A stretch of 41,838 nucleotides of DNA from an uncultured Syntrophomonadaceae bacterium (GCA_964345455.1 CAYFRE010000005.1:1330-43167); one strand, 5' to 3'. Positions 9,427 through 32,119 are shown, numbered from the stretch's first letter. The notes: generated from the sequence alone by a model not told the origin. Made by a program: numbers and translations.

Positions 9427-9825
9427 TTATTTGTCAACTTTGCCTGGAGATAAGTCTGAACCATAGTGTTGATGAAAATATGTCGAATGATATTTTTGTA
9501 ATTTCCAGGAGGGAACTCTACATGTTCTACAAACAGAAAAACCCCACTTGTTACGCAGGCAACGGGCCGCGCGACTGTTTTTTGAATTATAGGCCACAAA
9601 GGTCTCGTTGCAATGCGTCGTTATTTGAGCCTGATTTCCGACAATCTTGATTGATTTTATGCCATGCAGTATTCCTTTGCGGGAGGGCCATATTTTCATT
9701 TTTTGCAGCAGTTTAAAAAAGTCTACCCGTTTCCGATAGTATGTTTTCTTGGTATTTTCTTTTTTGCTGGCGCCGCCAGTCACTTCGTTGCTTTTTCCCA
9801 CGAACTCACTCTCCGATTTATTCAT
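9427..9825 (-). CDS. pylSn: pyrrolysyl-tRNA synthetase N-terminal tRNA-binding domain protein PylSn
   Basis: 132 aa. The core (IWPSRKGILHGIKSIKI...THCNETFVAYNSKNSRAARCLRNKW..VCRTCRV) aligns with the N-terminal domain of archaeal PylS (WMSRTGTIHKIKHHEV...[34 protein letters not shown]). A ~30-aa K-rich leader precedes the domain. Confidence 0.85.
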   Translation of the reverse strand: MNKSESEFVGKSNEVTGGASKKENTKKTYYRKRVDFFKLLQKMKIWPSRKGILHGIKSIKIVGNQAQITTHCNETFVAYNSKNSRAARCLRNKWGFSVCRTCRVPSWKLQKYHSTYFHQHYGSDLSPGKVDK

Positions 9826-9828
9826 GTG

Positions 9829-10659
9829 CTACTTCACAAGAGCTTGAAACAGCATCGTCGCCACACCGATCTGCAAAGGATCGTGAATAAGCCTCTCTGA
9901 AACCTTCCGCGCAGCATCGGGGTCCAACCCCAAAGGTATACCCGGCGCGGCGATCAGCGTCTTTTCATCAACCTGTTCACCGGTTACAAAATGCCGCCCC
10001 GGAGAGGCATCAAAGAGAATTGAACACCTTCCCAACGCTTCATTCAAGCTAAAACCGGCTCTGACCGGGAAGCTGCTTCTTGATTCCATGCTCCGGGCCA
10101 GGTTGGACTCCTTTTTTTTATTGATATCAAATATCACCAGATGGGCGCCTAATTCAGTTAGAGCAATTGCCGCAGCGGCGCCAACCTGGCCGGCGCCGAT
10201 CAGCAAAACATCTTTATTGTGCAAACTGCCGGCCATTCTATCCAAAGCAACTGCATATCCTTGAGCTGTTGCCGCGGCATTATCAACAATTTTGCGTGAC
10301 ACAAGGTTTATCGCGGCAAAACAATGGTCATCGGCAAGCATGACCACATGTGCATCTCTGCTATAGGCCTCGGTCAACCCGCGAACATCTGTAGACCCGG
10401 TGATAAAGGATTGACCGCCAAGATGATCAACAATCGCCACAACCGATTCAGAGAAGCCTTTGATTAAACCCTTCCCGGAGGTAACCGGGATAATGGCGAC
10501 CTTGCAGTCAGCCAGGCAATTTTTACTTAAATCATACCCGGCTGCAGCGGCGCCAATCTGGCCTAAAGAGAAGCCTGTTTTTTTGATCAGATCGCGATCA
10601 TAGCTGATTACTGAGTAAGCAATATCTACGATGTCATTGTCAGTTAATCTGGTCATCAT
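9829..10659 (-). CDS. pylD: pyrrolysine biosynthesis dehydrogenase PylD
   Basis: 276 aa with a Rossmann motif (LLIGAGQVGAAAA) and IPVTSGKG, occupying the position of PylD in the cassette. The gene ends in TAG. Confidence 0.85.
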   Translation of the reverse strand: MMTRLTDNDIVDIAYSVISYDRDLIKKTGFSLGQIGAAAAGYDLSKNCLADCKVAIIPVTSGKGLIKGFSESVVAIVDHLGGQSFITGSTDVRGLTEAYSRDAHVVMLADDHCFAAINLVSRKIVDNAAATAQGYAVALDRMAGSLHNKDVLLIGAGQVGAAAAIALTELGAHLVIFDINKKKESNLARSMESRSSFPVRAGFSLNEALGRCSILFDASPGRHFVTGEQVDEKTLIAAPGIPLGLDPDAARKVSERLIHDPLQIGVATMLFQALVK

Positions 10660-10719
10660 ACTCTCCCCCTGCCCAGAATTCCCACGTTGTTACCCACACC
10701 ACGATAACAAAAGCGTTAC

Positions 10720-11933
10720 TTAAATATAGATCCTTCGAGCGCTGCCCTCAGGATGACAAAGAAGGGGGGTTTTCACAGCTGCCGGAGAGGAGTCGAAGCA
10801 ATAATCAAGATTCTTCTTTTTTCTAATATTGTCGACAACCGCCTCCATTTTCTTTTTAGCCTGTTCACGATCCTTTGCGGTAACAATTAATGTAGCGGCC
10901 CAGTGTTTTTTGCCGGGACAATAATTTGTTAAAGCCTCTTCAGCCCCGAAAAAGCCTTCGTGAAAGGATAAGGGGCCTGCCGGGGAAATAATATGTTCTC
11001 CTGAAACTTCAAGTTTTTCCGGAGAGACCTTAATATGTTCATATATAACCGCTTGCTGCTTTTTATTAAACAGATTCCCGGGCCGGGTTCCCCGAACAAA
11101 GCAATCTGCCAGCACCTCCAGCAAATTAACCCCTGTCGAGTGATACACTACAGTAGGCGTTTGACTCGGCAACCTGGCGTCAATCTCCAACACTTTTAAC
11201 TTATGATCATGAAGAATTACCTCAACATCCATAATGCCCTTCAATTTTAAAGACCGGCAATCGTTAAAGCGATTCTCTCAAGCTGTTTTTGCTGAACTAT
11301 GGATAGATTGGCCGGGGCAATGACGCGCTTGCAATCATACCCCGGATCCATTTCAAGCTCGGTTACCTGGAAAGCGCTGTATTCATGTTCATAGCCGATT
11401 ACCTCTATGGAATAGGAGGGGCCCTCCAGATATTCCTGAATCACCCATCGCTCTGCGCCCGGCCCGGTTTTCTCCTTGAGCGCTCTGAGCTCGATCTCAT
11501 TTTGAATCCGCGCGATACCTGCACTGCCGCTGGAGTTATCCGGTTTCGCAATAACCGGAAACCCGCATTCCGGCCAAAGCGCAGGTACCGGCAGGCCAAT
11601 TTCCATAAATAATCTATCGGAGACGGTTTTTGAAGATGATACTGTATATGCCTGCAGGTCTAAAGCAATCGGCGTTTTTGTCTTTTCTGCCGTTTCGGCT
11701 AAAATGCTTAAGCATTCCCGGTTTTCCAGTGCAGGAATAATAAAATCTATCCCCTCCAAAGCCCGGGTTGTCTTCTCTGTTTCGTTTACGTTCAAACAAT
11801 AAAATCGATCACAGATCCCCCGCGCCGGAACTTGCGGCTCTTTATCGATGAGAAGAACATGCCAGCCGGCTTTCTTCGCCAGGTAAGCCGCTTCTAATCC
11901 CTGTAACTTTCCGCCCACAACAGCCACCCGCAT
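10720..11933 (-). pseudogene. pylC: pyrrolysine biosynthesis ligase PylC, interrupted by a 1-nt frameshift
   Basis: Two track ORFs (11247..11933 and 10720..11244) together cover an ATP-grasp PylC. The N part begins MRVAVVGGKLQGLEAAYLAKKAG. The C part begins LKGIMDVEV...EIDARLPSQTPTVVY. The break falls in the minus-strand CTTTAAAATTG, where the upstream frame hits TAA at 11247-11249. Confidence 0.8.
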
Positions 11934-11966
11934 TTTATCCTTCTCCTTTTTTGGCGACTCTTTCTT

Positions 11967-13091
11967 CTACCAGGAAGTCCGGATATGTTCAAGGCCTCTT
12001 TTTGCCTCGGCAACCCAATCAATAAAGGATTGTTTTTTAGCCGGCTGCAATCCACACTGCTCCAAAACAGGCAATACCCCGTCTACTGTCCTGCTGCCTT
12101 TTTCAATATCCAGGGTGCTTTGGGAAACCCCCAACAGGCCGGTGTGAGGCGGTATAATCGAGGTGATCACGTTTGCTCCGGCATTCAGTCTCTGTTTTAA
12201 TCCGGAAATACCATCAACATCAAGAGATGCCGGAATTAGTTTGTCGGGAAACATTATGCGCATTATGGCAATAATCAGGAGCTCGCGCAAATGAGATGGT
12301 GACTGCCAATGCTCCAGGGGTGTTCCTTTTTGCGGCACAAAGCTCATCACTCTAACCTGCTCTGCGCCCAGTTGGTTCATCACATTCAAGGAATCATAAA
12401 TATCTTTTGCCGACTCGCCGATTCCGGCCAGTAAACCCTCTTCAATCAAAAAACCCATCCGGCGGGCATCTATTTTGATCTCCAGCCTCTCACTATAACT
12501 TTGTAATAGCCTCAATTGAGCGAAGAGAGTATAATTATGGGTTTCCTGGTAGCATGCGAACCAGTCTACCCCGATACTCTTGAATTCCATTAAAACATCT
12601 CGCGGAACAACACCCGGGGAGATCATCAGGGGCAATTGGGTAACGCCTTTTACTGTTTCAACGACGTCTAACAGCTCATCAAACAGACCGGCTGAAAAAT
12701 ACTTTGGGTCTTCACCCATGGTCAGGTCAAGCAGGTGCACCCCCGACGACGCCAGTTGGTGAGCCGTTTCCACAATTTCTGTTTTTGATTTTCGATACCG
12801 TTCACTAACGTTATTTGATCGCCTGTAGAAGCAAAAGGTGCAATCATTCCGGCAATATGTGGAAAAATAAATAAATCCGTATAAGAATACCTGCCCGCCA
12901 AAGTGCCTTCGCCTCAATTCCCTGGCAACACTAAATAGCTTTTCAATGTCTGATTCGTCTTTCAGGTTAAGCAGGTAAGCGATCTCTTCTTCAACGAGAA
13001 ATGCACCGCTGGATGCCTTAGAAAGTAGATTGTCCAGATTGATATGTTTGGAATCTATCATAATGTCCACCTTTGGAAACATATTAGCCAC
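11967..13091 (-). CDS. pylB: radical-SAM lysine mutase PylB (3-methylornithine synthase)
   Basis: 374 aa with the CRNDCTFCFY radical-SAM cluster motif and strong similarity to archaeal PylB (FIYFSTYC.N.C.FC; MISPG; RVM.F.PQ.GTPLE; LIPASLD..GI.G...RLNAGAN). The start is uncertain: GTG 13091, ATG 13082 or ATG ~13061. The gene ends in TAG. Confidence 0.9.
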   Translation of the reverse strand: MANMFPKVDIMIDSKHINLDNLLSKASSGAFLVEEEIAYLLNLKDESDIEKLFSVARELRRRHFGGQVFLYGFIYFSTYCRNDCTFCFYRRSNNVSERYRKSKTEIVETAHQLASSGVHLLDLTMGEDPKYFSAGLFDELLDVVETVKGVTQLPLMISPGVVPRDVLMEFKSIGVDWFACYQETHNYTLFAQLRLLQSYSERLEIKIDARRMGFLIEEGLLAGIGESAKDIYDSLNVMNQLGAEQVRVMSFVPQKGTPLEHWQSPSHLRELLIIAIMRIMFPDKLIPASLDVDGISGLKQRLNAGANVITSIIPPHTGLLGVSQSTLDIEKGSRTVDGVLPVLEQCGLQPAKKQSFIDWVAEAKRGLEHIRTSW

Positions 13092-13121
13092 CCTGCTTCC
13101 GGATCGCCTGGCCTATCCATG

Positions 13122-13955
13122 CTATATATTCAGGCGAACCCCACCCAGGTAAGTCAGGCTTCTTCCGATTTTTTGGATATTGTAAAGCCCTTCCCTGGTT
13201 ATAACCAGCCGTTCCAGGCCAAAACCAATCCCCACCCAGGGGTCGGTAACCCCCCATTCCCGATCCAGGAAGTGGGGGCCCATGGCCCCGGATCCCAACT
13301 CTATAGTTGACATAACATCTATAGATTCTCCGTAAACTACCGATTTCTCTACTTCCAGCTGATAATCGGTGATCCCAACCGTATCCATCACCAGCGCCGC
13401 CAGTTCCTTTATCCGGTCGGGACATTGTTCTTCCGGCAGACCCATCTCCACAAGGTTAAGCATGGTAAACTCATTCATATGGTAAGGGCCCCGGGTGTCT
13501 TTGCGAAAACAGGGGCCGATTTCAAATATTCTAACCGGTTTCTCCCAGAGACGTGCCAGCTCTTTCATAAGATAGTAAAGATTCGGGGCCAGCATCGGGC
13601 GAAGGCATTTTTTGGAGTCAACCCAATATACCTGTGAAAAGAGGGGATGATTTTCTGTAATTAACATTTTGGCCAGCAAGCCCCTGGATAACAATAGAGG
13701 GGTAGATACTTGAACAAAGCCATGCGCAGTTAATGCTTCAGCCAGTATATTCTCTAATTCAACCAGAGACGGTCTTTTCTTAGACTTTTGATACTCAGAC
13801 AAACAGTCTTTACCCTTTCGCACAAGTTGCTGTTCTATCTGCTGGTAAGTCTTGTTACGCTCCTGGATGCTTTTGAAAGAGAGCCCCAGCTGCGCCTCAG
13901 ACGCATTCAATTCCTGCAGCCTCTGTTTTTGAACCGATGTCCAATTAATATCCAT
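13122..13955 (-). CDS. pylS: pyrrolysyl-tRNA synthetase catalytic domain protein PylSc
   Basis: 277 aa, a class II aaRS core very similar to the Desulfitobacterium-type PylSc as I recall it (QRL.ELNAS..QL; CLRPMLAPNLY; IFEIGPCFRK; EFTMLN; ELGSGAMGPHFLD..W...DPWVGIGFGLERL). The gene ends in TAG. Confidence 0.92.
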   Translation of the reverse strand: MDINWTSVQKQRLQELNASEAQLGLSFKSIQERNKTYQQIEQQLVRKGKDCLSEYQKSKKRPSLVELENILAEALTAHGFVQVSTPLLLSRGLLAKMLITENHPLFSQVYWVDSKKCLRPMLAPNLYYLMKELARLWEKPVRIFEIGPCFRKDTRGPYHMNEFTMLNLVEMGLPEEQCPDRIKELAALVMDTVGITDYQLEVEKSVVYGESIDVMSTIELGSGAMGPHFLDREWGVTDPWVGIGFGLERLVITREGLYNIQKIGRSLTYLGGVRLNI

Positions 13956-14003: not shown

Positions 14004-14075
14004 TGGCGGGGAGTCCGGGAGTTTCACCCGGCTATACAGATTTAGAGTCTGCATGATCCTTCCGATCCACCCCCC
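14004..14075 (-). tRNA. pylT: tRNA-Pyl (anticodon CUA)
   Basis: The 72-nt minus-strand sequence is GGGGGGTGGATCGGAAGGATCATGCAGACTCTAAATCTGTATAGCCGGGTGAAACTCCCGGACTCCCCGCCA. By hand it folds into a 7-bp acceptor stem, one linker nt, a 4-bp D stem with a 5-nt loop, a 6-bp anticodon stem, a CUCUAAA loop with the CUA anticodon, a 3-nt variable loop, a 5-bp T stem, discriminator G and an encoded CCA. These are the tRNA-Pyl hallmarks. It lies directly upstream of pylSc. Confidence 0.93.
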
Positions 14076-14155
14076 GCGTTTAACGAAGGTTTAACTTATT
14101 TCGCCCAAGTAATAACAGAACCCTTTAAGGAGTTATTATTTAGACAAAAACAGCT

Positions 14156-15517
14156 TTAGCCCCTTTCTTCGGATGCCTTAACAATGGCCAGGCCAAGAGT
14201 CTCCACAATTCTATCGATCTCTTCTCCGGTAATCACCAGTGGCGGTGAAAGCTGTAGAATGTCTCCTGCCAAAGGCCGGGTGATCAGGCCTTCTTCATAG
14301 GCAATTTCTACAACTCTCGGTGCCAGCGGGACAGGGAATTTCTCACGGGTTTTGCAGTCTTTAACCAGATCTACGCCAACCATTAAACCCATGCCCCTCA
14401 CTTCACCAATGGTTTTCAGGTTCAGGCAGCGCAGCCCTTCCTGAAGGCGCTGCCCCATGATAGCGGCCCGGCCATGAAGGTTTTCTCTTTCAATGATTTC
14501 TATGTTTTTTAAGCCGACCTGGCAGGCCAGGGGATGACCGCTGTATGTATAACCGTGGAAGAACCGGTCGCGGCTTTTCAAAACCTGGAATATTTCATCT
14601 GAAAAAACAGCAGCCCCCAGCGGCACATAGCCGCTGGTGATCCCTTTGGCAAGTGTCATAATGTCCGGAACGGCACCTTCCCAGTGCTCGATGCCGAACA
14701 TGGTCTCTCCTGTACGCCCAAACCCATTAATCACTTCGTCGGCAATAAAGATGACTTGATTGTGATTACATATTTCGCGGATTTTTTGATAATATCCCGG
14801 TGGCGGCACTATAACTCCGCCGGTGCCCAAAACAGGTTCGGCAATGAATGCCGCCACGTTTTCTGCCCCCAGAGAGCTGATTTTTTGCTCGAGGGCCAAC
14901 GCGCATTCCAGATCACACTGAGGGTACTCCTTGCCCCAGGTGCAATAATAACAATAGGGAGGGGCAATACTTTCAAAACCGGGCAGTAATGGAGAGAATC
15001 CCTCGTGAAACCCGGGCAACCTCGTGGCCATGACTGCTCCGCAGCTAACCCCATGATAAGCCTTATCACGGGTAATGATAATATCCTTGCTGTCCATCTC
15101 TCTGGCGTGCCAATAAAAGCGCACTGCCCTGATGATCGTGTCATTGGCCTCAGAACCACTGGATGTAAAGAAGATTTTTGCCTCCGGAATAGGAACCATC
15201 GAAGCTACTTTCCCGGCAAGGCGAATCGCCGGAACATTGGCAAACTCATTGAAGCTGTGATAAGCCTCCAGATTAACAACCTGTTTCTCCATCACCCGGC
15301 CAATCTCATCCCGGCCATGACCTATAGCACAATACCAGAGCCCGGCAGTCGCGTCAATATATTCCTTGCCCGCTACATCAAAAACCCTGCTGCCCTTTCC
15401 CCGGTAAATTATTTTCGCTCCTTTTTCCTGAAGGGCTACAATACTCGAGGTGGGATGCAGGTAATAATCCTGGTCTGCCTTGATCAGTTCTGCAATCTCT
15501 GAAGATCCCAAAAACAT
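14156..15517 (-). CDS. class III (omega-type) pyridoxal-phosphate aminotransferase
   Basis: 453 aa with typical class III aminotransferase blocks (SGSEANDT, DEV..GFGRTG, TLAKG.TSGY). A strong AGGAGGG RBS precedes the start. Confidence 0.8.
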   Translation of the reverse strand: MFLGSSEIAELIKADQDYYLHPTSSIVALQEKGAKIIYRGKGSRVFDVAGKEYIDATAGLWYCAIGHGRDEIGRVMEKQVVNLEAYHSFNEFANVPAIRLAGKVASMVPIPEAKIFFTSSGSEANDTIIRAVRFYWHAREMDSKDIIITRDKAYHGVSCGAVMATRLPGFHEGFSPLLPGFESIAPPYCYYCTWGKEYPQCDLECALALEQKISSLGAENVAAFIAEPVLGTGGVIVPPPGYYQKIREICNHNQVIFIADEVINGFGRTGETMFGIEHWEGAVPDIMTLAKGITSGYVPLGAAVFSDEIFQVLKSRDRFFHGYTYSGHPLACQVGLKNIEIIERENLHGRAAIMGQRLQEGLRCLNLKTIGEVRGMGLMVGVDLVKDCKTREKFPVPLAPRVVEIAYEEGLITRPLAGDILQLSPPLVITGEEIDRIVETLGLAIVKASEERG

Positions 15518-15561
15518 GATGTCCCTCCTATACTGAAAATAAGATTCAATTTAATATATCA

Positions 15562-15576
15562 GCAAAAGTCATGCCA
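15562..15576 (-). promoter_or_regulatory. sigma-54 (-24/-12) promoter upstream of the aminotransferase gene
   Basis: The minus strand reads TGGCATGACTTTTGC with GG-N10-GC spacing. It lies ~45 nt upstream of the ATG at 15517. Confidence 0.7.
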
Positions 15577-15761
15577 TAAGAGATTAAGGCTGAGACACGT
15601 TTTTAACAGATCCGACAGCGTCACCGGGGAAAAAAGATTTTTTTATGCATCAATGCCAATGGAATATTGCATTATTTTTTTCTTGCATACATCCAATTAA
15701 AAAAAAACGAATGTCAACTGCTTGAAGCTACTCAACCTTATTGCTTTCCCTCCAGCAAACT

Positions 15762-17261
15762 TCATTGCCGGTTAGCCGGATTCAATTCACTTTCGAATTC
15801 ATTTATGATCCGCTTCATTTCTTGCACCGCTCCATCGGACAGAGGGTGCGGTATATGTTTTTCTAAAACAGCGCGGGCTTCTTCATAGGCCCGTTCTGAT
15901 GCCTCTTTTCCTCCACCTTTCTCCCAGGCGGAGCGGTTCCGGCGATCGAACACATTGGCCTGAGACTGCCCCCGCATATGTTTAAAGGTGTGCTCGCTGG
16001 TCAGAAACTCTCCCGCCGGGCCGGCTTCCCCGATAACTTCCAAAGCTATCTCTTCATCTATAATCGAGAAACCGCCGATAATCTTTTTAATATGGCGGAT
16101 CATCTCCACATCCATAACCAGCTTCGCAAAATCTATGGTCAGGCCCATCTCCAGAGCACCTGCGCCGTAGATCACGTTGGCGCCGGCAAGGGAACCGAGA
16201 AGGGCATTCATAACATATTCGTACCCAGCCTGGGCGTCAGGAAGCTTGCTGTCAGAGATCCCGCCTCCAACGAGGCTAGGCAGCCTGTAATACTGGGCCA
16301 ATTTTACGGCCCCCGTGCTTAACATTCCATGTTCCGGCGCTCCCACCGCGCCAACCATATATTTCAGGTCCATAATCGTGCTCATGGAGCAGTAAGTACA
16401 GGGAGTGCCTTTCCTGATCAGTTGGGCCAAAATGAGCACACTTAAAGTCTCAGCATTATGGCTCACCAGGGTTCCGGCAAGGGTAGCAGTTGAGGTTGCT
16501 CCTGCCAGAGCCATGGGGATAATGGCCAGCCCCAATCCCAAACGGGCCGTCTCCATGGCTATTTCACAGCATTCTTTCCCCAGCGTCAAAGGAGATGTGG
16601 GACAGACAAATATGGTTACATGAGGCCTGTTTTTGAAATTATCCTTGCCGCCCACTGATAATGCTGCCATCTCCGCCATCTTGCCCACATTCCGGCCCTG
16701 GTGGGCGCCGATGAGAATATGCTTCGCTGTATTCTGCATAATAATGTTCAGATTGTGAAGCGCCTGGGTGTCGGGCGGCTTCTCTGTTGACCCTAAAGGA
16801 CGCACCATTACACTGATCTCATCATAGTAATCGCAGAGACGACAAAAGAGCCCCAGGTCCTCGTTCCGTGATTTTCGGAGCCGGCGGCTGTAGGGATCAA
16901 TGACCTGGATACATTCGCCAAATGTACTGAAGCCGACCCTGTTAGGCTCCGCAACGTAATCGTATGCAGGCAATCTGCCGTAATATACTGTTTTGCGGGG
17001 AGCCCAGCGGAGGCAATCCTCGATCATATGAGATGGTATTTTTACATTGGCATACCCTTTTTGGCGATCCACCACCGCCCCGGCTTCACAGAACACCTTT
17101 ACAGCCTCTTCGCTTTCTACTTTAATCCCTGTAATCTGAAGTAGTTCCAGCGTGGCATAATGAATTGAATCCAGCTGGTCCTGTGACAGTGCCGTGAGCC
17201 TGAAGCCTTTTAAATGATCAATGCCGTTCCTGGTATTTCGTAACATTAGGTTCGCCCCCAA
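15762..17261 (-). CDS. MttB-superfamily methyltransferase without pyrrolysine (quaternary amine:corrinoid methyltransferase candidate, MtgB-like)
   Basis: Full-length uninterrupted ORF homologous to the mttB at 22883..24358. The Pyl position is occupied by Ile (VGGG-I-SDSKLPD versus VAGG-UAG-ADSKIPD). The start may be ATG 17246 rather than TTG 17261. Confidence 0.8.
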   Translation of the reverse strand: MGANLMLRNTRNGIDHLKGFRLTALSQDQLDSIHYATLELLQITGIKVESEEAVKVFCEAGAVVDRQKGYANVKIPSHMIEDCLRWAPRKTVYYGRLPAYDYVAEPNRVGFSTFGECIQVIDPYSRRLRKSRNEDLGLFCRLCDYYDEISVMVRPLGSTEKPPDTQALHNLNIIMQNTAKHILIGAHQGRNVGKMAEMAALSVGGKDNFKNRPHVTIFVCPTSPLTLGKECCEIAMETARLGLGLAIIPMALAGATSTATLAGTLVSHNAETLSVLILAQLIRKGTPCTYCSMSTIMDLKYMVGAVGAPEHGMLSTGAVKLAQYYRLPSLVGGGISDSKLPDAQAGYEYVMNALLGSLAGANVIYGAGALEMGLTIDFAKLVMDVEMIRHIKKIIGGFSIIDEEIALEVIGEAGPAGEFLTSEHTFKHMRGQSQANVFDRRNRSAWEKGGGKEASERAYEEARAVLEKHIPHPLSDGAVQEMKRIINEFESELNPANRQ

Positions 17262-17279
17262 ATATCATAAACCTTGACT

Positions 17280-18116
17280 TCATTCTTTCCGGTAATCCTG
17301 AATAAACTCTTCGATATATTCACTTGCAGGTGATGATAATATTTCATCGGAGGTGCCAATCTGCTCTATCTTCCCGTTCTTCAGCATGGCAATCCGGTCT
17401 CCTATCTTGAAGGCCTCTTTAAGGTCGTGAGTAATGAATATAATGGTCTTCTGGATACTCGATTGTAGCGACAGGAGTTCGGTATGCATGTTGCGCCTGA
17501 TTAGCGGGTCAAGCGCACTGAAGGGTTCATCCATCAAGAGTATATCCGGATCATTGGCCAAAGCGCGCGCCAGGCCTACCCGTTGCTTCATACCCCCGCT
17601 CAGCTCACTGGGATATTTATCCCCCCACCCTTCCAGGCCTACCCTCTCCAGGGCTGCACTGGCAGTTTTAATCCGCTGCTGTTTAGGGATGCCTCGAATC
17701 TCTAACCCCCACTCAACGTTACCGATAACTGATCTGTGGGAAAAGAGCCCAAATTGCTGGAAAACCATGCCGATTTTTAATTGCCGCAGATCCTTGAGCT
17801 GTTTTTTGTCGTAATCAACGATATTATCTCCATCAACATATATGTTGCCCGAGGTAGGCCTTGTGAGCAAGTTGATGCAGCGAACAATTGTAGATTTGCC
17901 GCTACCCGAAAGGCCCATGATTACAAACGTTTCACCCTCAAATACATCAAAGGATACATCATCTACGGCGACAACATGATCGGTATCTTGAAATATATCT
18001 TCTGCGCTTGATCCATTGATGCTCATCATTTTCCACATGGCATCCGGATCCGGCCCGAATATTTTTACCAGGTTTTCCACTCGCACCTTTGTCTTTTTCA
18101 AACGCTCACCTCCCAA
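17280..18116 (-). CDS. glycine betaine/proline betaine-type ABC transporter ATP-binding protein (OpuAA/ProV-like, no CBS tail)
   Basis: Walker A (GLSGSGKST), the ABC signature (LSGGMKQRV) and Walker B (LLMDEPFSALD) are present. The N-terminal region is ProV-like. At 278 aa it lacks the C-terminal CBS pair. Confidence 0.8.
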   Translation of the reverse strand: MGGERLKKTKVRVENLVKIFGPDPDAMWKMMSINGSSAEDIFQDTDHVVAVDDVSFDVFEGETFVIMGLSGSGKSTIVRCINLLTRPTSGNIYVDGDNIVDYDKKQLKDLRQLKIGMVFQQFGLFSHRSVIGNVEWGLEIRGIPKQQRIKTASAALERVGLEGWGDKYPSELSGGMKQRVGLARALANDPDILLMDEPFSALDPLIRRNMHTELLSLQSSIQKTIIFITHDLKEAFKIGDRIAMLKNGKIEQIGTSDEILSSPASEYIEEFIQDYRKE

Positions 18117-18130
18117 CTATTGATGCCTGC

Positions 18131-18994
18131 TCAGTCGATCCTGAATTTTTTTGAAAACCTGCCGGCCAAACCCTGTGTTGCCCGGTCAATGATAATGGCC
18201 AGAAAAACAATGCTGATCCCGGCGTTAAACCCGCGGGCTATATCGATCCGGTTAATCGCTATGTAGACCTCCAATCCCAAACCCCCTGCACCTACCATCG
18301 AGGCAATCACGACCATGGATAAAGCCATCATGGTGGTCTGATTGACACCGGCCATGATATTGGGAAGTGCTTGCGGAAGTTTAATTTTTAGCATCAATTG
18401 TAATTGTGAAGGGCCAAAGGACTCCGCCGCTTCAACCATCTCCTTGGATACTCTGCGTATACCCAGATTGGTTAACCTGATCGCCGGGGGAACTGCAAAC
18501 AGGATTGTAGCAAAAGTAGCAGGAACCGACCCCAACCCGAAAAACATGATCGCGGGAATCAAATATACATACGCAGGCAGTGTTTGCATTGCATCCAAAA
18601 TTGGGGTGAGGGCGCTGTCAAATCCATCATATTGAGCCGCCAGTATCCCTAGAGGAACCCCGATCATGATTGATATCAAAACCGATGCCAGGATTATCGC
18701 CAAAGTCGCCATCATATGGGTCCATAAACCCAGTGTGCCAATCAAAAAGATCAGGAAAGTAAAGAGCAGCGCACTGGACCAGCCCCGGACCTTCATCAAT
18801 ATTAAGAAAACAGTGATTAATACGAGCCACCACGGCAACCAGTTAAGTCCCGTTTCTAACTTGAGTAATAACCATAGAATGCTGTCTGACATTGCCGTAA
18901 AGAATCCTGCACAACTAACATTAAGCCACCTGATCGCATATTCTACATATTCTCCCAGATCAAAATATAGAAATTCGGGAAAATTTTTCATCAT
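18131..18994 (-). CDS. glycine betaine-type ABC transporter permease (OpuAB/ProW-like)
   Basis: 287 aa polytopic protein with a BPD-transporter EAA-like loop (EAAESFGPSQLQLMLKIKLPQALP). Confidence 0.8.
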   Translation of the reverse strand: MMKNFPEFLYFDLGEYVEYAIRWLNVSCAGFFTAMSDSILWLLLKLETGLNWLPWWLVLITVFLILMKVRGWSSALLFTFLIFLIGTLGLWTHMMATLAIILASVLISIMIGVPLGILAAQYDGFDSALTPILDAMQTLPAYVYLIPAIMFFGLGSVPATFATILFAVPPAIRLTNLGIRRVSKEMVEAAESFGPSQLQLMLKIKLPQALPNIMAGVNQTTMMALSMVVIASMVGAGGLGLEVYIAINRIDIARGFNAGISIVFLAIIIDRATQGLAGRFSKKFRID

Positions 18995-19144
18995 GCGTGC
19001 AGCATATTTGACACAGCTGCTTCCCCCCTTGGCATGTGCTCAGTTATAGTGATGCCCGGTAGAAACTCTCAAGATCTACAGATAAACGTTTCTCAGATTT
19101 CTATGCACTGACTGACATTTCGGGGATGCCCTGGTCTTCTCTAT

Positions 19145-19179
19145 CGATTGGCGTGGGAGAACCATCCCCACGCCAATCG
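19145..19179. repeat. perfect 13-bp inverted repeat (stem-loop) in the 298-nt gap between the binding-protein and permease genes
   Basis: CGATTGGCGTGGG (19145-19157) and CCCACGCCAATCG (19167-19179) are separated by a 9-nt loop. Confidence 0.6.
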
Positions 19180-19292
19180 AAAAAATGGTTCCAACACTAC
19201 CCTTGCCTCTATCTTGCTGTTATTTTTCCAGGAGCAGCTTTAGGGAACAAACCGGTTAAAATGTCAGCATGTTGGCCGGGTGTATTCTACTA

Positions 19293-20303
19293 CTACAGCG
19301 CTTCTTTGACCTTATCAGCGATCTCTGCGGGAAGCCATTCCGCCCAGAGATCCGGATATTCTTTCAAAAAGTGCAAAGCTGCTTCATCAGCTTCCGCATC
19401 GTTTGTCTCCATGTACGCCAACATCTCATTATGAACATCCACGCTGATGACCAGCTTCTCCAGGAACTCCACAATCTCCGGACCCCACTCGGGCATATCT
19501 TTCACTACAGCTTTGGTGACATCCTGAGGCTTCCGTTTGCAACCATAGCCGTCCTCCCATAGTTCCGGATCATATGGGGGCTCATCAAGCAAAGTCCAGT
19601 CACCCAACCCGAGCACCCAGTCCGGCGCCCAGTGATAGGCCACGATGGGCTCTCCTTTATCATAGGCATCGACCATAGCGGTAGCGAGAGCCATATCGGA
19701 GCCTGGCAGGAAGTGATTGTACCACTCATCGAGCCCGTAAGTTTTGATCTGATCATCCATCAATTCAGCTACAAACCATGTCGGCGGAGGACCAACAATC
19801 CGCCCTTTGGATGGATCCTCGGGATCTTTGAACAGCTCCCAGTAGTCGGGCAGATCCAGAGCCGACTTCAAATCGGGCGCCATCGGTTCGATACCCCTCT
19901 CAGGATCACCCTCGATTACATAGGTGGGCACGAAGAGCCCTTCCTGGTCGGAGACGAAGTTCACGCCGAGATCTAAAATGTCGCCTGACTCAACCAGGTC
20001 GGAGTAGGCCTCGCCGTAATTTTCCGTCCATGCTTCAGTCAGAATATGAACGTCCCCCTGAACCATTCCTTCCAACAACACGGGGGTTGCACCCAAAAGA
20101 ACCTCGTACGTGTAACCGTAACCCTCTTGCAGGATTATTCCGGCGACATGAGCATTGAAGTGCATGCTCTCCCAACCGCAGTTACCCAGCACAAGGTGTT
20201 TTTTCTCTGTTTCTTCCTCTGCAGGTGCACATGCCATTAACGAGGTGAGTAAGACAATAGCAAGCAGAAAAACTGATGCCCTTATCAAAACGGACCTTTT
20301 CAC
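19293..20303 (-). CDS. glycine betaine-type ABC transporter substrate-binding lipoprotein (OpuAC/ProX-like)
   Basis: 336 aa with a signal peptide and lipobox (LLTSLMAC). It is Trp/aromatic-rich, as in quaternary-amine binding proteins. It starts at GTG with a GGAGG RBS and ends in three consecutive TAG codons. Confidence 0.75.
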   Translation of the reverse strand: MKRSVLIRASVFLLAIVLLTSLMACAPAEEETEKKHLVLGNCGWESMHFNAHVAGIILQEGYGYTYEVLLGATPVLLEGMVQGDVHILTEAWTENYGEAYSDLVESGDILDLGVNFVSDQEGLFVPTYVIEGDPERGIEPMAPDLKSALDLPDYWELFKDPEDPSKGRIVGPPPTWFVAELMDDQIKTYGLDEWYNHFLPGSDMALATAMVDAYDKGEPIVAYHWAPDWVLGLGDWTLLDEPPYDPELWEDGYGCKRKPQDVTKAVVKDMPEWGPEIVEFLEKLVISVDVHNEMLAYMETNDAEADEAALHFLKEYPDLWAEWLPAEIADKVKEAL

Positions 20304-20503
20304 AAAGTGACCTCCTTTTTAAGTTTGATTGTCAGTGAAACACTGTAATTTACCGATCATCTATCCCGATAAAGCCACCTCCCTCATCCAACATCTTGCG
20401 CTACATATCAGCCGGTATCGCTTCTACTCAATAATTGACATGATGCAATATTTGTTTATACTATCCAAACAGCCTCATCCCTGGAGTTGCCCGGTGATAC
20501 CGG

Positions 20504-21163
20504 CTACCTGACCAACTCGAGTAATCCCAGAACCTTGTCTACGGCTTCAGCCGCATCTTCGGCATAGGCGTCTGCGCCAATTTTATTGGCAAACCCTTGC
20601 GTGACCGGGGCCCCCCCGACAATGGTCTTGAATCGTTCTCTTAAACCCCTTTTCCGCAGTTCATTCTCCAGCTTTTTTTGACCATTTAAGGTTGCTGTTA
20701 ATAGAGCGCTGGTGCCGATAATATCAGCTTCATGCCTCAGGGCGCCTTCAATAATGTCTCCGGTGCTCACATCCCTGCCGAGATCAATGACCTCAATGCC
20801 CTGGGTTTTTATTACAGATATGACGATGCCTTTCCCGATATCGTGGACATCTCCTTCCACTGTGGCAATTACCATGGTCCCCTTTTTAATAACTCCTCCG
20901 GAACCGTCCTTGACAATGGCTTCGTTTAAAACCGACGTGGCTTTCTCCATGATCTGTGCCGCCTCGATGAGTTCGGGCAAAAACTTTTCACCCCGCTCAA
21001 ACAAGTTACCCACTTCCCGGATACCCTTGCTAAAACCCTCATTCAGCACCATCATCAGATCCTCTTTTTCTGCAACAGCGCGCCGCGCAATTTCTACAGC
21101 TTTTTCTTCATCACCATCCACGATCGATTGGATGGCCCAATTTAAAATATCCTTCTGGCTCAT
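20504..21163 (-). CDS. methylamine-specific corrinoid (cobalamin-binding) protein, MtbC/MttC-like
   Basis: 219 aa. An N-terminal B12-binding-2 helical cap precedes a Rossmann B12 domain carrying DVHDIGKGIV (the DxHxxG motif). The gene lies 23 nt downstream of mtbB and ends in TAG. Confidence 0.85.
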   Translation of the reverse strand: MSQKDILNWAIQSIVDGDEEKAVEIARRAVAEKEDLMMVLNEGFSKGIREVGNLFERGEKFLPELIEAAQIMEKATSVLNEAIVKDGSGGVIKKGTMVIATVEGDVHDIGKGIVISVIKTQGIEVIDLGRDVSTGDIIEGALRHEADIIGTSALLTATLNGQKKLENELRKRGLRERFKTIVGGAPVTQGFANKIGADAYAEDAAEAVDKVLGLLELVR

Positions 21164-21186
21164 TTCCTGCCCTCCATTGCCATTTG

Positions 21187-22581
21187 TTAAAATGATAGCC
21201 CTGCTTTCTCTTTAAATCGCTCTACAGAATTAATCTCTATACCCAATAATTCTGCGATGCGAATCTTGGCCTCAATCCCTATCGCCCCCCCGGGGCGGGC
21301 TAAAACATGGCCAATGTTCAGCTCTTCTCTCAACTCGCGCATGATTTGAGAGTCACTGAGCTCGATAACAGATATCCCCAGTTTATCCGCTACGTATTTT
21401 TTGGCTTCGCCAACCCTGAGAGCTTTGGATGCCATGACCCGCGCTACCAGATCTCCGGCAGTGCGAATGCCACCCATCCCTGTTGCCAGCTCATGGAGAA
21501 AGGCCATGCCAAATGTATCACCGTGACCTATCTACAACCCGTCTGCTTTTCCGATTTCAATTAAAGCCACCGATGCCCTTGATATGGCATCAACAGGAGC
21601 AGTGCTGGTGACAGGCACTCCGCCGACGCCCATGCCGGCATTGGGATGAATGGGTATTGTGGCTATTTCGGAGCAAGCCTTGATAAATGTGCAGGCGCGA
21701 GAAATATTCCAGGGAACAGTTTTATTGCTTTTGGTGTTGACCACAGGCCCGAAGAGGTCTACCCCTGCTTTTTCGGCAAGCTTTACCTGTAAATGTGGAT
21801 AAAGCCCCGCCAGGCGAGTCTCTTCATATTTCAGATCGCCATGCATCCCCAGCACAAACTCCCCGGCCATCCCCATTTCCACCTGTATACAGGGGTGATC
21901 TTTTTTTAACTTTTCTACAGCTTTCAATGCGGCCAAGAAATCCGCGTCGCCCGAAGCTCCTACGGTATCAAAATTAATGCCGTCAGATCCCGCTTCGTGC
22001 ATAATGCCGGAAACAAAACAGATATCTTTTACGGCAATCTCTACCGCTTCTTCCTGGGCCTCCCTGGACTCTTGAATTTTGCCCATGGGCAATAGCTCCG
22101 ACCAGTTGTCAACAGGGCCATCAGGCTTGGTATAAAGGCCTAAATTGGGCATGGCCCCGTAGAAGACAGGAATGGTCGCATTTAACTGAATTTGTTCCAT
22201 AACCTGCCGTTCTTCATGAACGATGGATTTTACCGGTTTGAAGCTATAGTCCACATGCCCCAGTTCAATAGTGTCAGAGCAAAATGCTCTTTCATGGGCT
22301 AAAACCGTTCCGAGACGATCCACCGGCACCCCACCCCGCAGTGGGAATTTAAGGGTTCCTGCATCAAAACTATGCACCACTTCATCGCCTTGTTTTACAC
22401 TGACAACCTTTTGGGGTGAAGCACATATTTCAAAAAGGCGCTGAAGTTCATCCTCATCAAGAGGAGGAACCTTTCCCCGGTCTGCTGCATCCAGGGTTCC
22501 ATCTTCCAGTTCCTGCCTCAGCTCTTTTTCAGTTAGCCAAAGGGTAGTTCCATCCCCCATCCTGGTTAAAATTCTTTGCAT
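21187..22581 (-). CDS. mtbB: dimethylamine:corrinoid methyltransferase MtbB with one in-frame UAG (pyrrolysine) codon
   Basis: Track ORFs 21532..22581 and 21187..21507 are one gene. The minus strand reads ...GKADGL-TAG-IGHGDTFGMAFLHE..., colinear with archaeal MtbB (..GVDGI-O-IGVGDPLGM..., ...AAGDLVAR...EAK.YVA.KL). The total is 464 codons. Confidence 0.9.
21532..21534 (-). other. in-frame UAG (predicted pyrrolysine codon) of mtbB
   Basis: Plus-strand cta is minus-strand TAG. Homology to MtbB continues in the same frame on both sides. Confidence 0.85.
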
Positions 22582-22633
22582 CCTGCAACCTCCTTCTGCG
22601 ATAATAAACCCTAACCTTTCCTAATGTTTATGC

Positions 22634-22648
22634 GCAATATACGTGCCA
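22634..22648 (-). promoter_or_regulatory. sigma-54 (-24/-12) promoter upstream of mtbB
   Basis: The minus strand reads TGGCACGTATATTGC with GG-N10-GC spacing. It lies ~53 nt upstream of the ATG at 22581. Confidence 0.75.
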
Positions 22649-22882
22649 TCTAAGGATAGGTTAGGGTAATATACGCCATTAACGAACGAGCCTGGCAACC
22701 CTCAAAAGCCTGTCACCGTTATTGTAATGTTTCTTGTCTCAATCTAAATTGCAACCATTTTTGTAGACCATCTTCTATCTAGAGGCAGCTCTTTGTCCCA
22801 TCATTTAATGAATCTTTTCATTATTTCTAATGCATAATTTCATTACATTGCCTCCCAGGTAAGAGGGTGCATTTTAAGGTAT

Positions 22883-24358
22883 TTACTTATTTAACCCATA
22901 TTCATCCTCGCTTTCTTCCACAATTTCCTGTATTTTCTTTATCGTGCCATCCGGCAACGGTTCGGGTTTATGTTTATTCAAGATCAAATTTGCCTTTTCA
23001 TAAGCCCGTTCTGTCATTGATGTACCTCCGTCCTCTAACCATGAAGCACGGTTTCGCCGGTCGATAAGCTCGCTTTGCGATTGCACTTTCCGGAAGTTTT
23101 CAAAGGTATGATGATGCCCGACAAAATGCCCTCCGGGCCCGACCTCATGGATAACATCCAGAGCCATATGTTCATCAGTTACTGAAATGCCCATGATCGC
23201 CTTTTTAATCATCTTGAACATCTCATTGTCCATTACCAACTGAGCATAATCAAAAGTAACGCCGAGCTCAAGCATCCCCGCCCCATAAATCAAGTTAGCG
23301 CCACCCTGGGCTGCCAACAAGGCTGTTATGGTCTTTTCGTGGGCCGCCTGCGCATCGGGAATTTTACTGTCAGCCTACCCGCCGGCAACAAAGCTGGGAA
23401 GGAGATAATAACGGGCTAATTTGGCGACACCTGCAGAGATCAGGCCCAGCTCCGGAGCTCCTACCGGAGTGGTGGAATAGCGCAAATCCATGATCGTGGT
23501 AGAGCTGCCGTACAATACCGGAGCGCCCTTGCAGGCCAACTGACTTAAAACAACCGCACTTAAAACCTCGGCATTGTGGATCACCAGCGTTCCGGCCAAT
23601 GTAACCGGAGTCGTTGCCCCTGCCAGAGCCATGGATATAATGTTACTGGGAACTCCGGCCCGGGCCGCTTCAATAATAATGTCAGTACAATCCGGAATGA
23701 GATGCAACGGGCTAGTCGGACAGACGTTAAAACTGATTATCGGCCGCCTTTTCAGGTTTTCCCGGCCTCCGCTCACTTCTTCCGCCATTTTAATGATCTT
23801 TCGACAGTTGTTGATACTATCTGCACCGATAAAGAAATGCTTACTGGTATTTTGGAATAAAGCTTCAGCGTTATGCAGGGATTGAACCTTGCTGTGATAA
23901 TCCAGTGATGTTACCGCACGATAGTTGATATCCAGTTCGTCCAAGTAGTCACTAAGTCTGGCCGCATCAGCTACATCTTTTTTTGTTGTTTTGCGATACT
24001 CAAGCGTGATGGGATCAATAATATTAATTCCTTCACCGAAGCATACAAAACCTACCCGGGAGCCCTCAACAACAAAATCTTTTTGGGGATTCCGCCCGGC
24101 CAGTGTAATAGTAGGTGGGGCGGAACGGATAGCATCTTCGATCATATACGCAGGTATTTTTACCAATCCCGTATTGTAGTCAACATCGGCCCCATAACCA
24201 TCAAAAAGATCCTGGGCTTCTTTGCTCTCGATCTTAATTCCCGTATTCCGCAAAATGTCCAATGTGGCAAAATGCAAGGTGTCCAGCTCATCCCCGGTAA
24301 ACATGTTTAACCCGAGACCGTCAAACCGGTAAACCGCTTGCAGGTTTCTTTTTGCCAT
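22883..24358 (-). CDS. mttB: trimethylamine:corrinoid methyltransferase MttB with one in-frame UAG (pyrrolysine) codon
   Basis: Track ORFs 23375..24364 and 22883..23320 are one gene. The minus strand reads ...[27 protein letters not shown]..., matching archaeal MttB (...[24 protein letters not shown]...). I prefer the start at ATG 24358, which has GGAGG 9 nt upstream. Confidence 0.9.
23375..23377 (-). other. in-frame UAG (predicted pyrrolysine codon) of mttB
   Basis: Plus-strand cta is minus-strand TAG, at the position homologous to Pyl334 of archaeal MttB. Confidence 0.88.
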
Positions 24359-24474
24359 GCACACTCACCTCCATTTAACCTGTATGAAGCAACCTTACCC
24401 TTTTCCCAAAGCCCCCCTTTACTCGTAGTTATATTCCGTCCGGTAAGCAGCTCCATCCTTGATTTCTTTTACAG

Positions 24475-24490
24475 TGCAAAATGCATGCCA
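24475..24490 (-). promoter_or_regulatory. sigma-54 (-24/-12) promoter upstream of mttB
   Basis: The minus strand reads TGGCATGCATTTTGCA with GG-N10-GC spacing. It lies ~115 nt upstream of the ATG at 24358. Confidence 0.75.
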
Positions 24491-24602
24491 TGGATTTATG
24501 AAGAAGACTGTTTCCAGAAAGGAGCCCTGGACAGGCCCGGTCATTTAAAACTTTTTATTATCTTTGGAAGTATTGCATTGCCGGTAATGTTTTTTTGCAT
24601 TG

Positions 24603-26333
24603 CTAATATCCGTTGTCTTCCCTGATTCGTTTTAAAATGCGTGCCACAGTGGATTGATCAATCTCAAGAGCTTCAGCAGCTTTATAGGTGGATCCATAGA
24701 CTTCATACGCTTTTCCGATAAGCTGGCACTCCAGCTCCCGTTTGGCACGCTTATAAGGAATTATCTCTGTGCAAAACACGCCTCCTTCATTCGGACGGGG
24801 CCCTTTCAAAATATTCCACATGCTGTCTTTTGTGCAAACATTAATGTCATTACTATAAATAACTACAGCTCTTTCGACCATATGTTCCAGCTCGCGAACG
24901 TTTCCCGGCCATTCATAATCTAAAAATTCTTTGATTACCTGTTCGTTAAAAGATATATTTTTATTATATTTACGGTTGTACAGCTCCAAAAAATATGTGA
25001 TCAGAGCAGGAATATCCTCACGCCGATTACGAAGTGGGGGTATGGTAATCGGAAACAAATTCAGACGATAAAACAGGTCCTTGCGGAACCTTCCTTCCTT
25101 TACCTCTACCTGCAGAACACGGTTGGTCGCCGCAATAATCCGCGTATTTACCTTAATTTTTTTTGTTCCACCGATCCGGAATAGCTCCTTATCCTGTAGA
25201 AACTCTAAAAGTTTCACTTGAATGTCATGAGATATATCTCCAATCTCATCAAGAAAAAGAGTGCCTTCATGAGCCAGTTCGATTTTACCCTTTCTCCCTT
25301 TACTATCTGCCCCGGTAAAAGCTCCTCCCTCATAGCCAAAAAGTTCTGACTCAATCAATTTGTCGGGAAGAGTAGCGCAATTAATTTTTACAAATGAAGA
25401 TTCTCGCCGCGGGCTCAATGCATGAATAGCTCTGGCCACGACCTCTTTCCCAACCCCCGTTTCACCCTGAAGAAGAACCGTTAAATTCAATGGGGCGATC
25501 TTTTGTACAGTATCCTTTATGTGTCTCATCTCCGGGCTTGTAGATATAAAGTTCACCTGGGTAAAAAGCTCCTCCTGCATATTGCTTAATTCAATGTTTT
25601 TACGTTTTAGTTCGTCTTCTTTGTTTTCCAGCTCTTTTTTTAAGTCAACAAGCTCCGTCATGTCTTTGGATGTGCAGAGAGTCAGAACAATATTCCCTTG
25701 CCCGTTTAGTATTGGCACTCCGGTGCACAGGCGCCACTTTCGACCTTCTTTTACTTGTTGCATAATATGTATTTTTTTCTTCTGCCGTAATACTTCAAGA
25801 GCACCGCTGATTGAAAAAACCTGTTGTTCTACAAGTTCTTCTACAAAACGCCCCTCCATTTCCGATGCTTTCATCCCCATGATTTGCTCTCCTTTGGGGT
25901 TAACAAGAAGGACCCGGCCCTTGTTGTCGGTAACAAATATTTCTTCTTCAAAACTCTCGATGATAGCTTTATAGACCATCAATTGCTTACTTATGCAGGC
26001 AGAGTCAACAACTTCTACCACGGACCCGTTTGAAGATAAAATCAAAACAATATCCGAAGAAAGGCAATCAATATCAAGCAGCGATTTATCCTCTGAAAGA
26101 CAGCAAAAATTTATTCCCCCGTTAATATCACCTATTGTTAAATCATTATCGCCTTTGTTAAATAATAGTGATCTAAATATCTCCAAAACAGGCAATACCT
26201 TAACGATCATGTTCTCCCGGTTTACGATAATGAATTTTATATTTTCTGACAGTTTCTTGAAACCAATCTCCCCTAAAGTGGTGGTGGCCGGTAATTCCAA
26301 AAAGCTTTTGCTTTTTTTATACTTCGTGTCCAT
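24603..26333 (-). CDS. sigma-54-dependent transcriptional activator (N-terminal sensory region + PAS + AAA+ + Fis-type HTH)
   Basis: 576 aa. Walker A (GETGVGKE), the GAFTGA loop (EGGAFTGA), Walker B (LFLDEIG) and a C-terminal HTH (STYKAAEALEIDQSTVARILKR) are present. A PAS-like segment spans about residues 120-230. The gene ends in TAG. Confidence 0.88.
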   Translation of the reverse strand: MDTKYKKSKSFLELPATTTLGEIGFKKLSENIKFIIVNRENMIVKVLPVLEIFRSLLFNKGDNDLTIGDINGGINFCCLSEDKSLLDIDCLSSDIVLILSSNGSVVEVVDSACISKQLMVYKAIIESFEEEIFVTDNKGRVLLVNPKGEQIMGMKASEMEGRFVEELVEQQVFSISGALEVLRQKKKIHIMQQVKEGRKWRLCTGVPILNGQGNIVLTLCTSKDMTELVDLKKELENKEDELKRKNIELSNMQEELFTQVNFISTSPEMRHIKDTVQKIAPLNLTVLLQGETGVGKEVVARAIHALSPRRESSFVKINCATLPDKLIESELFGYEGGAFTGADSKGRKGKIELAHEGTLFLDEIGDISHDIQVKLLEFLQDKELFRIGGTKKIKVNTRIIAATNRVLQVEVKEGRFRKDLFYRLNLFPITIPPLRNRREDIPALITYFLELYNRKYNKNISFNEQVIKEFLDYEWPGNVRELEHMVERAVVIYSNDINVCTKDSMWNILKGPRPNEGGVFCTEIIPYKRAKRELECQLIGKAYEVYGSTYKAAEALEIDQSTVARILKRIREDNGY

Positions 26334-30566: not shown

Positions 30567-30582
30567 TGGCACCGCTATTGCA
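30567..30582 (+). promoter_or_regulatory. sigma-54 (-24/-12) promoter upstream of pntAA
   Basis: The plus strand reads TGGCACCGCTATTGCA, a full consensus with GG-N10-GC spacing. It lies 46 nt upstream of the ATG at 30628. Confidence 0.7.
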
Positions 30583-31803: not shown

Positions 31804-31819
31804 GTTCAAGCGGGAAGGA

Positions 31820-32104: not shown

Positions 32105-32119
32105 AGAGGAGTATCGCCC

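Follow-up and report, generated by a model that had tools for sequence, protein, structure and literature searches.

The pyrrolysine (Pyl) and methylamine genes in a 41,838-nt stretch of DNA from an uncultured bacterium of the phylum Bacillota (the window, meaning the whole of that stretch) appear to form a sigma-54 regulon that serves anaerobic growth with methylamines, with three transcription units that include the pyl cassette. We assign this reading, which is drawn from sequence comparison, a probability of roughly 0.7. In the proposed mechanism an enhancer-binding protein with PAS, AAA+ and helix-turn-helix (HTH) domains (24603-26333) would bind 18-bp palindromes some 100-200 bp upstream of three -24/-12 promoters. 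Its sensor domains would detect a signal, most likely a methylamine or quaternary amine, and the protein would then spend ATP on opening the closed complex of sigma-54 and RNA polymerase. The first unit would consist of mttB, and the second of mtbB, its corrinoid protein, a betaine-type ABC transporter and an MttB paralogue that lacks Pyl. The third would begin with a class-III aminotransferase gene and continue into pylT-pylSc-pylB-pylC-pylD-pylSn, with no recognisable promoter or terminator between. The nearest named relatives by protein are Desulfosporosinus, Formimonas, Dehalobacterium and similar genera.

Promoters, palindromes and activator

The sigma-54 pattern TGGCAYNNNNNTTGC (TGGCAYN5TTGC) matches the window four times, at 15562-15576(-), 22634-22648(-), 24476-24490(-) and 30567-30581(+), against an expectation of 0.38 +/- 0.58 from 100 dinucleotide shuffles, none of which reached four. 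All four sites are intergenic and oriented at the next gene, their GG and GC doublets lie exactly 10 nt apart in TGGCAC-N5-TTGCW, and each agrees with the consensus at 11 of 12 positions. An earlier note on this DNA had read three such promoters on the minus strand, before mttB, mtbB and the aminotransferase gene, with exact GG-N10-GC spacing and 45-115 nt from their start codons. The pattern search recovered all three with the same positions and spacing, and the distances to the ATG measure 44-117 nt, namely about 117 nt for mttB (ATG at 24358), 52 nt for mtbB (22581) and 44 nt for the aminotransferase (15517). The number of sites had been put too low, since a fourth, 46 nt before pntAA (30628), was overlooked. 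In the features listed here, L numbers denote comparison loci.

24475..24490, minus strand: sigma-54 promoter PmttB, TGGCATGCATTTTGCA (pattern match; equivalent in L003, L089, L090, L091 and L092)
24585..24602, strand not assigned: putative upstream activator site of PmttB, CAATGCAAAAAAACATTA (10/12 to consensus; starts 112 nt upstream of -24)
22633..22648, minus strand: sigma-54 promoter PmtbB, TGGCACGTATATTGCG (pattern match; kept before mtbB in L001, L003, L089, L090 and L092)
22806..22845, strand not assigned: two adjacent putative upstream activator sites of PmtbB, TAATGAAATTATGCATTA and TAATGAAAAGATTCATTA (palindrome match)
15561..15576, minus strand: sigma-54 promoter of the aminotransferase gene, TGGCATGACTTTTGCT (pattern match; kept in L093 as TGGCATGAATCTTGCG)
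15657..15674, strand not assigned: putative upstream activator site of the aminotransferase promoter, TAATGCAATATTCCATTG (palindrome match; kept in L093 as TAATGCAGAAATTCATTG)
30567..30582, plus strand: fourth sigma-54 site, TGGCACCGCTATTGCA, before pntAA-pntAB-pntB (30628-33514) (pattern match)
24603..26333, minus strand: enhancer-binding protein, 576 aa (Pfam PF00158, Sigma54_activat, 7.5e-67; PAS_9, AAA_lid_14, HTH_50)

Weaker -24/-12 matches near 10220-10235, 7861-7876 and 1758-1773 all lie within coding regions and were taken as chance. A search of the long mttB leader and of the gap before pylT against Rfam (E <= 0.1) gave no known riboswitch or leader RNA, the only matches being to PYLIS models.

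The three minus-strand promoters share a second element. Alignment by eye upstream of 18 promoters in activator-bearing loci yielded an 18-bp palindrome, TAATGC-N6-GCATTA, whose start lies between 98 and about 220 nt ahead of the -24 element. At a threshold of at least 10/12 the promoter-upstream DNA (4.68 kb) holds 18 copies and the remainder of these loci (152 kb) 8, and at 11/12 or better the counts are 7 and 1, an enrichment that is somewhat inflated because the palindrome was derived from the same upstream regions that were later counted. With up to two mismatches the window holds five copies (24585-24602, 22828-22845, 22806-22823, 22622-22639 and 15657-15674), all adjoining the three minus-strand promoters and none elsewhere in the 41.8 kb; shuffles give 1.9. 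The position of the PmttB copy is kept in L003, L090, L091 and L092. Such confinement to promoters, together with the appearance of the element alongside activator orthologues, would be hard to explain otherwise, and we infer that the activator binds the palindrome.

The activator itself is intact by sequence, with Walker A (GETGVGK) at residue 290, GAFTGA at 337 and Walker B (LFLDE) at 359, and an AAA+ domain with GAFTGA is joined to an N-terminal sensory module and a C-terminal HTH. The PAS domain spans residues 121-229, the HTH_50 match at 533-569 scores 25.2 bits, slightly below the 27-bit cutoff, and the Pfam search assigned no domain to residues 1-115. A tblastn search found no second sigma-54 AAA+ domain in the window, bearing out the view that the protein encoded directly upstream of mttB is the only enhancer-binding protein there. 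Its domain order and mode of action resemble those of PrdR and other PAS-AAA+-HTH activators of the Clostridia (PMC6615313), and it differs from PrdR in its predicted target, which is proline reductase for PrdR and methyltransferase and pyl genes here. Identity with PrdR was rejected: the best NCBIfam match, NF041552, scores 377 bits against a curated cutoff of 795, so the protein is not a PrdR equivalog. A metagenome scan with low-complexity activator peptides returned three weak loci only.

Comparison with loci whose activators are 60-72% identical to that of the window indicates that promoters, palindrome and activator travel together.

L001, L003, L089, L090, L091 and L092: activator (60-69% identical) upstream of mttB(Pyl) and mtbB(Pyl), -24/-12 sites preceding each of the two methyltransferase genes
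L004: activator (72% identical) directly before pntAB, with a -24/-12 site, TGGTATGTATTTTGCA, in between, and with a perfect palindrome

The palindrome accompanies activator orthologues in seven loci, including at mtbB and, in L004, at pntAB. Since sites and palindrome recur in six of the orthologous-activator loci, the prediction that one activator and three promoters form a shared regulon, as the earlier note had supposed, is well supported by conservation and by the common 18-bp element. For the third promoter the relevant comparison is L093, a metagenomic locus whose PylSc is 83% identical. Here the order ABC transporter, MttB paralogue, aminotransferase, pylT, pylSc, pylB is kept, and the palindrome and the -24/-12 site before the aminotransferase gene are retained despite differing surroundings. 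The L089 locus, which comes from the same organism as L022, has its pyl cassette 172 nt after mtbB-mtbC, downstream of a sigma-54 promoter. The arrangement in L004 indicates that the fourth promoter of the window is probably a member of this regulon or of an allied one, which suggests that redox balancing by pntAB may be co-regulated with methyl-group oxidation.

The pyl genes and sigma-54 sites before pylT

From 26333 down to 9427 the minus strand carries a single co-directional string of genes, from the activator through pylSn.

22883..24358, minus strand: mttB, trimethylamine methyltransferase (TIGR02369, 721 bits, cutoff 525), with an in-frame UAG at 23375-23377 (TAG)
21187..22581, minus strand: mtbB, dimethylamine methyltransferase (TIGR02368, 534 bits), with an in-frame UAG at 21532-21534 (TAG) and a match to Rfam PYLIS_2 at that codon
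20504..21163, minus strand: cognate corrinoid protein, MtbC-like (B12-binding and B12-binding_2 domains; MtbC model 6e-55, under cutoff)
17280..20303, minus strand: betaine/choline-family ABC transporter of three genes, OpuAC-type binding protein, permease and ATPase (profile matches)
15762..17261, minus strand: non-Pyl MttB-family paralogue (Pfam MTTB)
14156..15517, minus strand: class-III (omega) aminotransferase (Pfam Aminotran_3, 2e-93; no NCBIfam model reaches its cutoff)
14093..14155, minus strand: A/U-rich hairpin in the aminotransferase-pylT gap (>20 bp, -20.3 kcal/mol, z = -3.15; no U tract after it)
14004..14075, minus strand: pylT, tRNA-Pyl with anticodon CUA (ARAGORN)
9427..13955, minus strand: pylSc, pylB, pylC (frameshifted near 11245-11250), pylD and pylSn (TIGR02367, TIGR03910, TIGR03909 over two open reading frames (ORFs), TIGR03911 and TIGR03912)

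The in-frame UAG stands at the conserved position in both mttB and mtbB, as in Pyl-dependent methyltransferases, and the CUA-anticodon tRNA gene adjoins a split PylS, as in bacterial pyl cassettes. The stop codons of 36 annotated ORFs in the window are TAG in 12, TAA in 16 and TGA in 8, and this TAG share is high for an organism in which UAG can encode an amino acid.

The aminotransferase stop and pylT are 80 nt apart, as ARAGORN and the gene coordinates confirm. A consensus scan of the coding strand of this gap gave no sigma-70-like promoter and no terminator-like site, in keeping with the earlier assessment that no convincing promoter or terminator lies there. The gap hairpin lacks both a U tract and a counterpart in L093, and for these reasons was not accepted as an intrinsic terminator. 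Transcription of the Pyl cassette from the third promoter, which had been put forward in the earlier note, stands as the best reading in view of the gap scan, the gene order and promoter kept in L093, and the pyl loci and the Sporomusa start described below. For this contig the read-through is predicted, and we consider it moderately likely.

In many relatives sigma-54 sites stand directly before pylT. A genome scan, one genome per species, with a PylSc alignment as query provided the best 80 pyl loci, outside of which fell those of Acetohalobium arabaticum and Desulfitobacterium hafniense. Upstream sequence of 600 nt or more is available for 58 pylT copies, and 18 of them are preceded by a TGGCAY-N5-TTGCA site ending 27-48 nt before the first base of pylT; these 18 belong to Desulfosporosinus (12), Sporomusa (2), Candidatus Formimonas warabiya, a Dehalobacterium metagenome-assembled genome (MAG) and two uncultured Clostridia/Bacillota. 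The strict pattern occurs 62 times on both strands of 2.83 Mb, corresponding to about 0.08 expected in the pylT windows versus the 18 observed. When these 18 promoters are aligned, the TTGGCA and TTGCA blocks alone are invariant and the flanking columns hold little information.

The loci fall into several arrangements. Those of the Desulfosporosinus, Formimonas and Dehalobacterium type read pylT-pylSc-pylB-pylC-pylD-pylSn-mttC-mttB, with an activator gene converging on the end of the cluster in all five that extend far enough. In Desulfosporosinus the cluster ends with the activator gene, and pylB is preceded, at a distance of about 30-50 nt, by a second sigma-54 site; about 170-200 nt upstream of this promoter and of the one before pylT lies a common motif built of repeated TGACTTGA-like half sites. 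The Sporomusa loci have mttC-mttB and the activator gene upstream of pylT, encoded on the other strand. L014 and L053 have the order activator, sigma-54 site, mtt operon and then pylT, and Syntrophaceticus schinkii (L082) has a sigma-54 site before pylB. Taken with L094 and L095, which carry an extended -10 (TGTGCTATAAA) and no sigma-54 site before pylT, these arrangements indicate that sigma-54 control of the pyl cassette is common in Bacillota and not universal. The activators of the other genera are 37-41% identical to that of the window in loci of the Desulfosporosinus, Formimonas and Dehalobacterium type and 32-36% identical in Sporomusa. The palindrome of the window was looked for upstream of the pylT promoters of other genera and is absent; they have their own activators and their own motifs.

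Published transcript data from Sporomusa bear directly on these predictions. A 2025 multi-omics study of Sporomusa sphaeroides KIAC reports 24 SigL promoters of the form TGGCA-N6-TTGC in an organism with a sigL gene (PMC12456013). Its supplementary differential RNA sequencing (dRNA-seq) data list a betaine-only primary start at 1680199(-), assigned to pylSc and bearing a SigL motif, and a divergent SigL start at 1680559(+) for a corrinoid gene (PMC12456013). The two published starts are 360 nt apart, versus 359 and 366 nt between the divergent sigma-54 sites that we predict in two other Sporomusa genomes. A betaine-only unit of 8004 nt comprises nine genes, pylSc, pylB, pylC, pylD, pylSn, mtbB, a corrinoid protein gene and two more, and normalised counts for pyl genes rise from 0-1.6 on H2/CO2 to 496-5063 on betaine (PMC12456013). 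Neither 'pyrrolysine' nor 'pyl' occurs in the main text of that paper. The Sporomusa system, in which mttBC and other methyltransferase genes of this kind are transcribed upon induction by substrate from TGGCA-N6-TTGC promoters that have sigma-54 activators encoded nearby (PMC12456013), resembles the one proposed for the window. It differs in its upstream motifs, in the activator divergence given above, and in the placement of the promoter, which in Sporomusa relatives stands directly before pylT, whereas in the window an aminotransferase gene intervenes.

Competing readings and the control of UAG decoding

Several observations weigh against the proposed regulon, in addition to the inflated palindrome enrichment. 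Some of them bear on the step from the third promoter into pylT and would fit an arrangement in which the sigma-54 regulon is real, the third promoter serves the aminotransferase only, and pylT and the pyl genes are under a weak constitutive promoter of their own in or near the gap. The gap hairpin would then end or trim the upstream transcript, and code expansion in this organism would be independent of the activator. L093 has a perfect -10 hexamer, TATAAT, at 17-nt spacing from a weak -35, TTGCTT, 13 nt before pylT, which is a possible sigma-70 promoter. This site, together with the extended -10 of the more distant L094 and L095, indicates that independent pylT promoters occur in this clade. 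In the window the stable hairpin could attenuate or process the transcript, and weak sigma-70-like matches, at chance level, lie inside the aminotransferase gene. However, the promoter-like hexamers of L093 are not kept in the window, whose gap has neither a coding-strand sigma-70-like match nor a U tract after the hairpin. Moreover, many other Bacillota drive the pyl cassette by a sigma-54 promoter or place it behind a sigma-54-driven methyltransferase operon, and the sole mapped primary start for Sporomusa pylSc is of SigL type and found on betaine only (PMC12456013). A separate constitutive promoter for the pyl genes of the window is on these grounds unlikely. A further point against the proposed regulon concerns the cassette as a whole: pylB and pylD are intact and pylC is split by a shift of 1 nt within a run of T and A, which, if real, would leave the cassette unable to make pyrrolysine.

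The absence of any palindrome of at least 10/12 upstream of the pntAB promoter in the window also counts against a single regulon, and would fit the view that the promoters are genuine and answer to different activators encoded elsewhere in the genome, with the adjacent activator controlling mttB only. Related genomes do encode many paralogous PAS-AAA+ activators, a second one lying 8 kb away in L003. Such a division of labour is nonetheless difficult to reconcile with the same 18-bp palindrome at all three minus-strand promoters and nowhere else in the window, and with its company of activator orthologues in seven loci, and we regard it as quite improbable. That the -24/-12 matches are chance or non-functional, in an organism that lacks sigma-54, would accord with the absence of rpoN from this contig. 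This last view is scarcely credible given four intergenic and correctly oriented sites where 0.38 are expected, their retention across loci with diverged flanks, and a full-length activator with GAFTGA. We know of no function for such an activator without sigma-54.

The sigma-54 regulon, read as the control system of all three units, would have consequences for how UAG is decoded. A sigma-54 promoter gives no transcript unless its activator is present. This suits bacteria with UAG as a Pyl codon, which still end many genes at UAG and so must keep Pyl-tRNA off when it is not needed. Because mttB and mtbB need UAG to be read as Pyl and a third of the tallied ORFs end in TAG, a promoter of near-zero basal activity would keep the suppressor tRNA off in the absence of substrate. 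We lean towards the view that in a large set of Pyl-decoding Bacillota, namely Desulfosporosinus, Sporomusa, Formimonas, Dehalobacterium and the present lineage, a sigma-54 promoter with a substrate-sensing activator acts as a switch between a 20- and a 21-amino-acid code, in many of these by transcribing pylT directly. We know of no earlier sigma-54-dependent tRNA gene.

The mechanism is that of a canonical sigma-54 and activator regulon, of a kind already known. No description seems to exist of such a regulon acting on the pyl cassette or, as in many relatives, on pylT itself, nor of the specific pairing of an activator with a palindrome for Pyl-dependent methylamine genes. The earlier claim that this regulatory logic is new for pyl genes was too strong. 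In Acetohalobium arabaticum the pyl operon is transcribed only with trimethylamine (Prat et al. 2012, as quoted in PMC11467909 and PMC8318568), SigL-driven mttBC was reported in 2025 (PMC12456013), and a matrix-based survey of the same year predicts MttB (COG5598) genes in Clostridia as sigma-54 targets (PMC12316311). That survey works at the COG level only, gives no activator, upstream site or link to pyl or pylT, and calls the enzyme a B12-biosynthesis function (PMC12316311). The 2019 reconstruction of Clostridiales sigma-54 regulons makes no mention of methyltransferase, trimethylamine, betaine, corrinoid, pyl or tRNA (PMC6615313). The part of the claim that stands is narrower: no statement of a link between sigma-54 and pyrrolysine or pylT was found in the full-text literature searched, which leaves out most subscription journals.

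Like the window organism, A. arabaticum is a Pyl-decoding Firmicute, one that reads UAG as Pyl conditionally, and the passages of the two citing papers that quote this work name no promoter type or regulator (PMC11467909, PMC8318568). The window therefore offers a candidate mechanism and not the phenomenon: since conditional pyl transcription was already known, the sigma-54 finding supplies its likely basis, and the switch, if true, would explain conditional code expansion in Acetohalobium. A sigma-54 site before pylT makes that mechanism concrete, with a defined promoter, a defined upstream site and a candidate sensor protein whose ligand can be screened for. The cultivable Desulfosporosinus and Sporomusa and the existing dRNA-seq data set are suited to checking the idea, and engineered code expansion may profit from a natural promoter and its activator that together hold a suppressor tRNA under tight control.

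Neighbouring genes and related loci

The region around the UAG of mttB matches Rfam PYLIS_3 with 86.7 bits. The same model also matches the non-Pyl MttB paralogue, at 16160-16259, with 63 bits. This protein is 49% identical to the Pyl-containing MttB and has Ile at the Pyl position (GGI aligned to GG-Pyl), and a match where Pyl is lacking indicates that the model seems to score coding-sequence homology and not UAG-specific structure.

The pylC gene (10720-11933) is read as two ORFs, with the 1-nt shift falling within GGTCTTTAAAATTG, which has one base fewer than the intact PylC gene of L089. Either an error of the assembly in a homopolymer or a true loss of pyrrolysine synthesis could account for the frameshift. 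A reduced pyl cluster occurs in L090 (12154-14259), where the orthologous activator, mttB(Pyl) and mtbB(Pyl) lie beside pylSc, pylSn and, between these, a gene for a short PylD_N protein; pylB and pylC are absent from this cluster, and a pylT gene was not detected in it.

Class-III aminotransferase genes recur beside pyl genes. Directly upstream of pylT/pylSc, L093 has one (3717-5078) whose product is 84% identical to that of the window, and in L090 one lies just downstream of pylSn (14256-15629; 73% identical). Others stand upstream of pylT/pylSc in a Bacillota MAG (L019, 1043-2263) and in two Desulfobacteraceae MAGs (L047, 2824-4125, and L058, 167-1408); being 32-36% identical to that of the window, these may not be orthologues. 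A link of the aminotransferase to pyrrolysine or methylornithine metabolism is conceivable from this association.

In Desulfosporosinus a gene of 322 aa lies between pylSc and pylB (L006, 10986-11954, with equivalents in L013, L024 and L033), and the second sigma-54 promoter follows it. Judged by sequence motifs alone, it looks like a choline- or aminoglycoside-kinase gene. Ten MAG contigs (L007, L008, L009, L011, L012, L015, L026, L028, L031 and L041) end about 10-350 nt upstream of pylT, so assemblies seem to break repeatedly at this junction; the remnant in L007, L008 and L015, judged by eye, is the 3' end of a corrinoid-protein-like gene.

Elsewhere in the window, between pntB and a diacylglycerol-kinase-like gene, a DruA-like (Druantia) ORF lies beside an ORF with a DDE_Tnp_1-associated domain (33593-35192, minus strand), a pair that may be the remnant of a defence system or mobile element.

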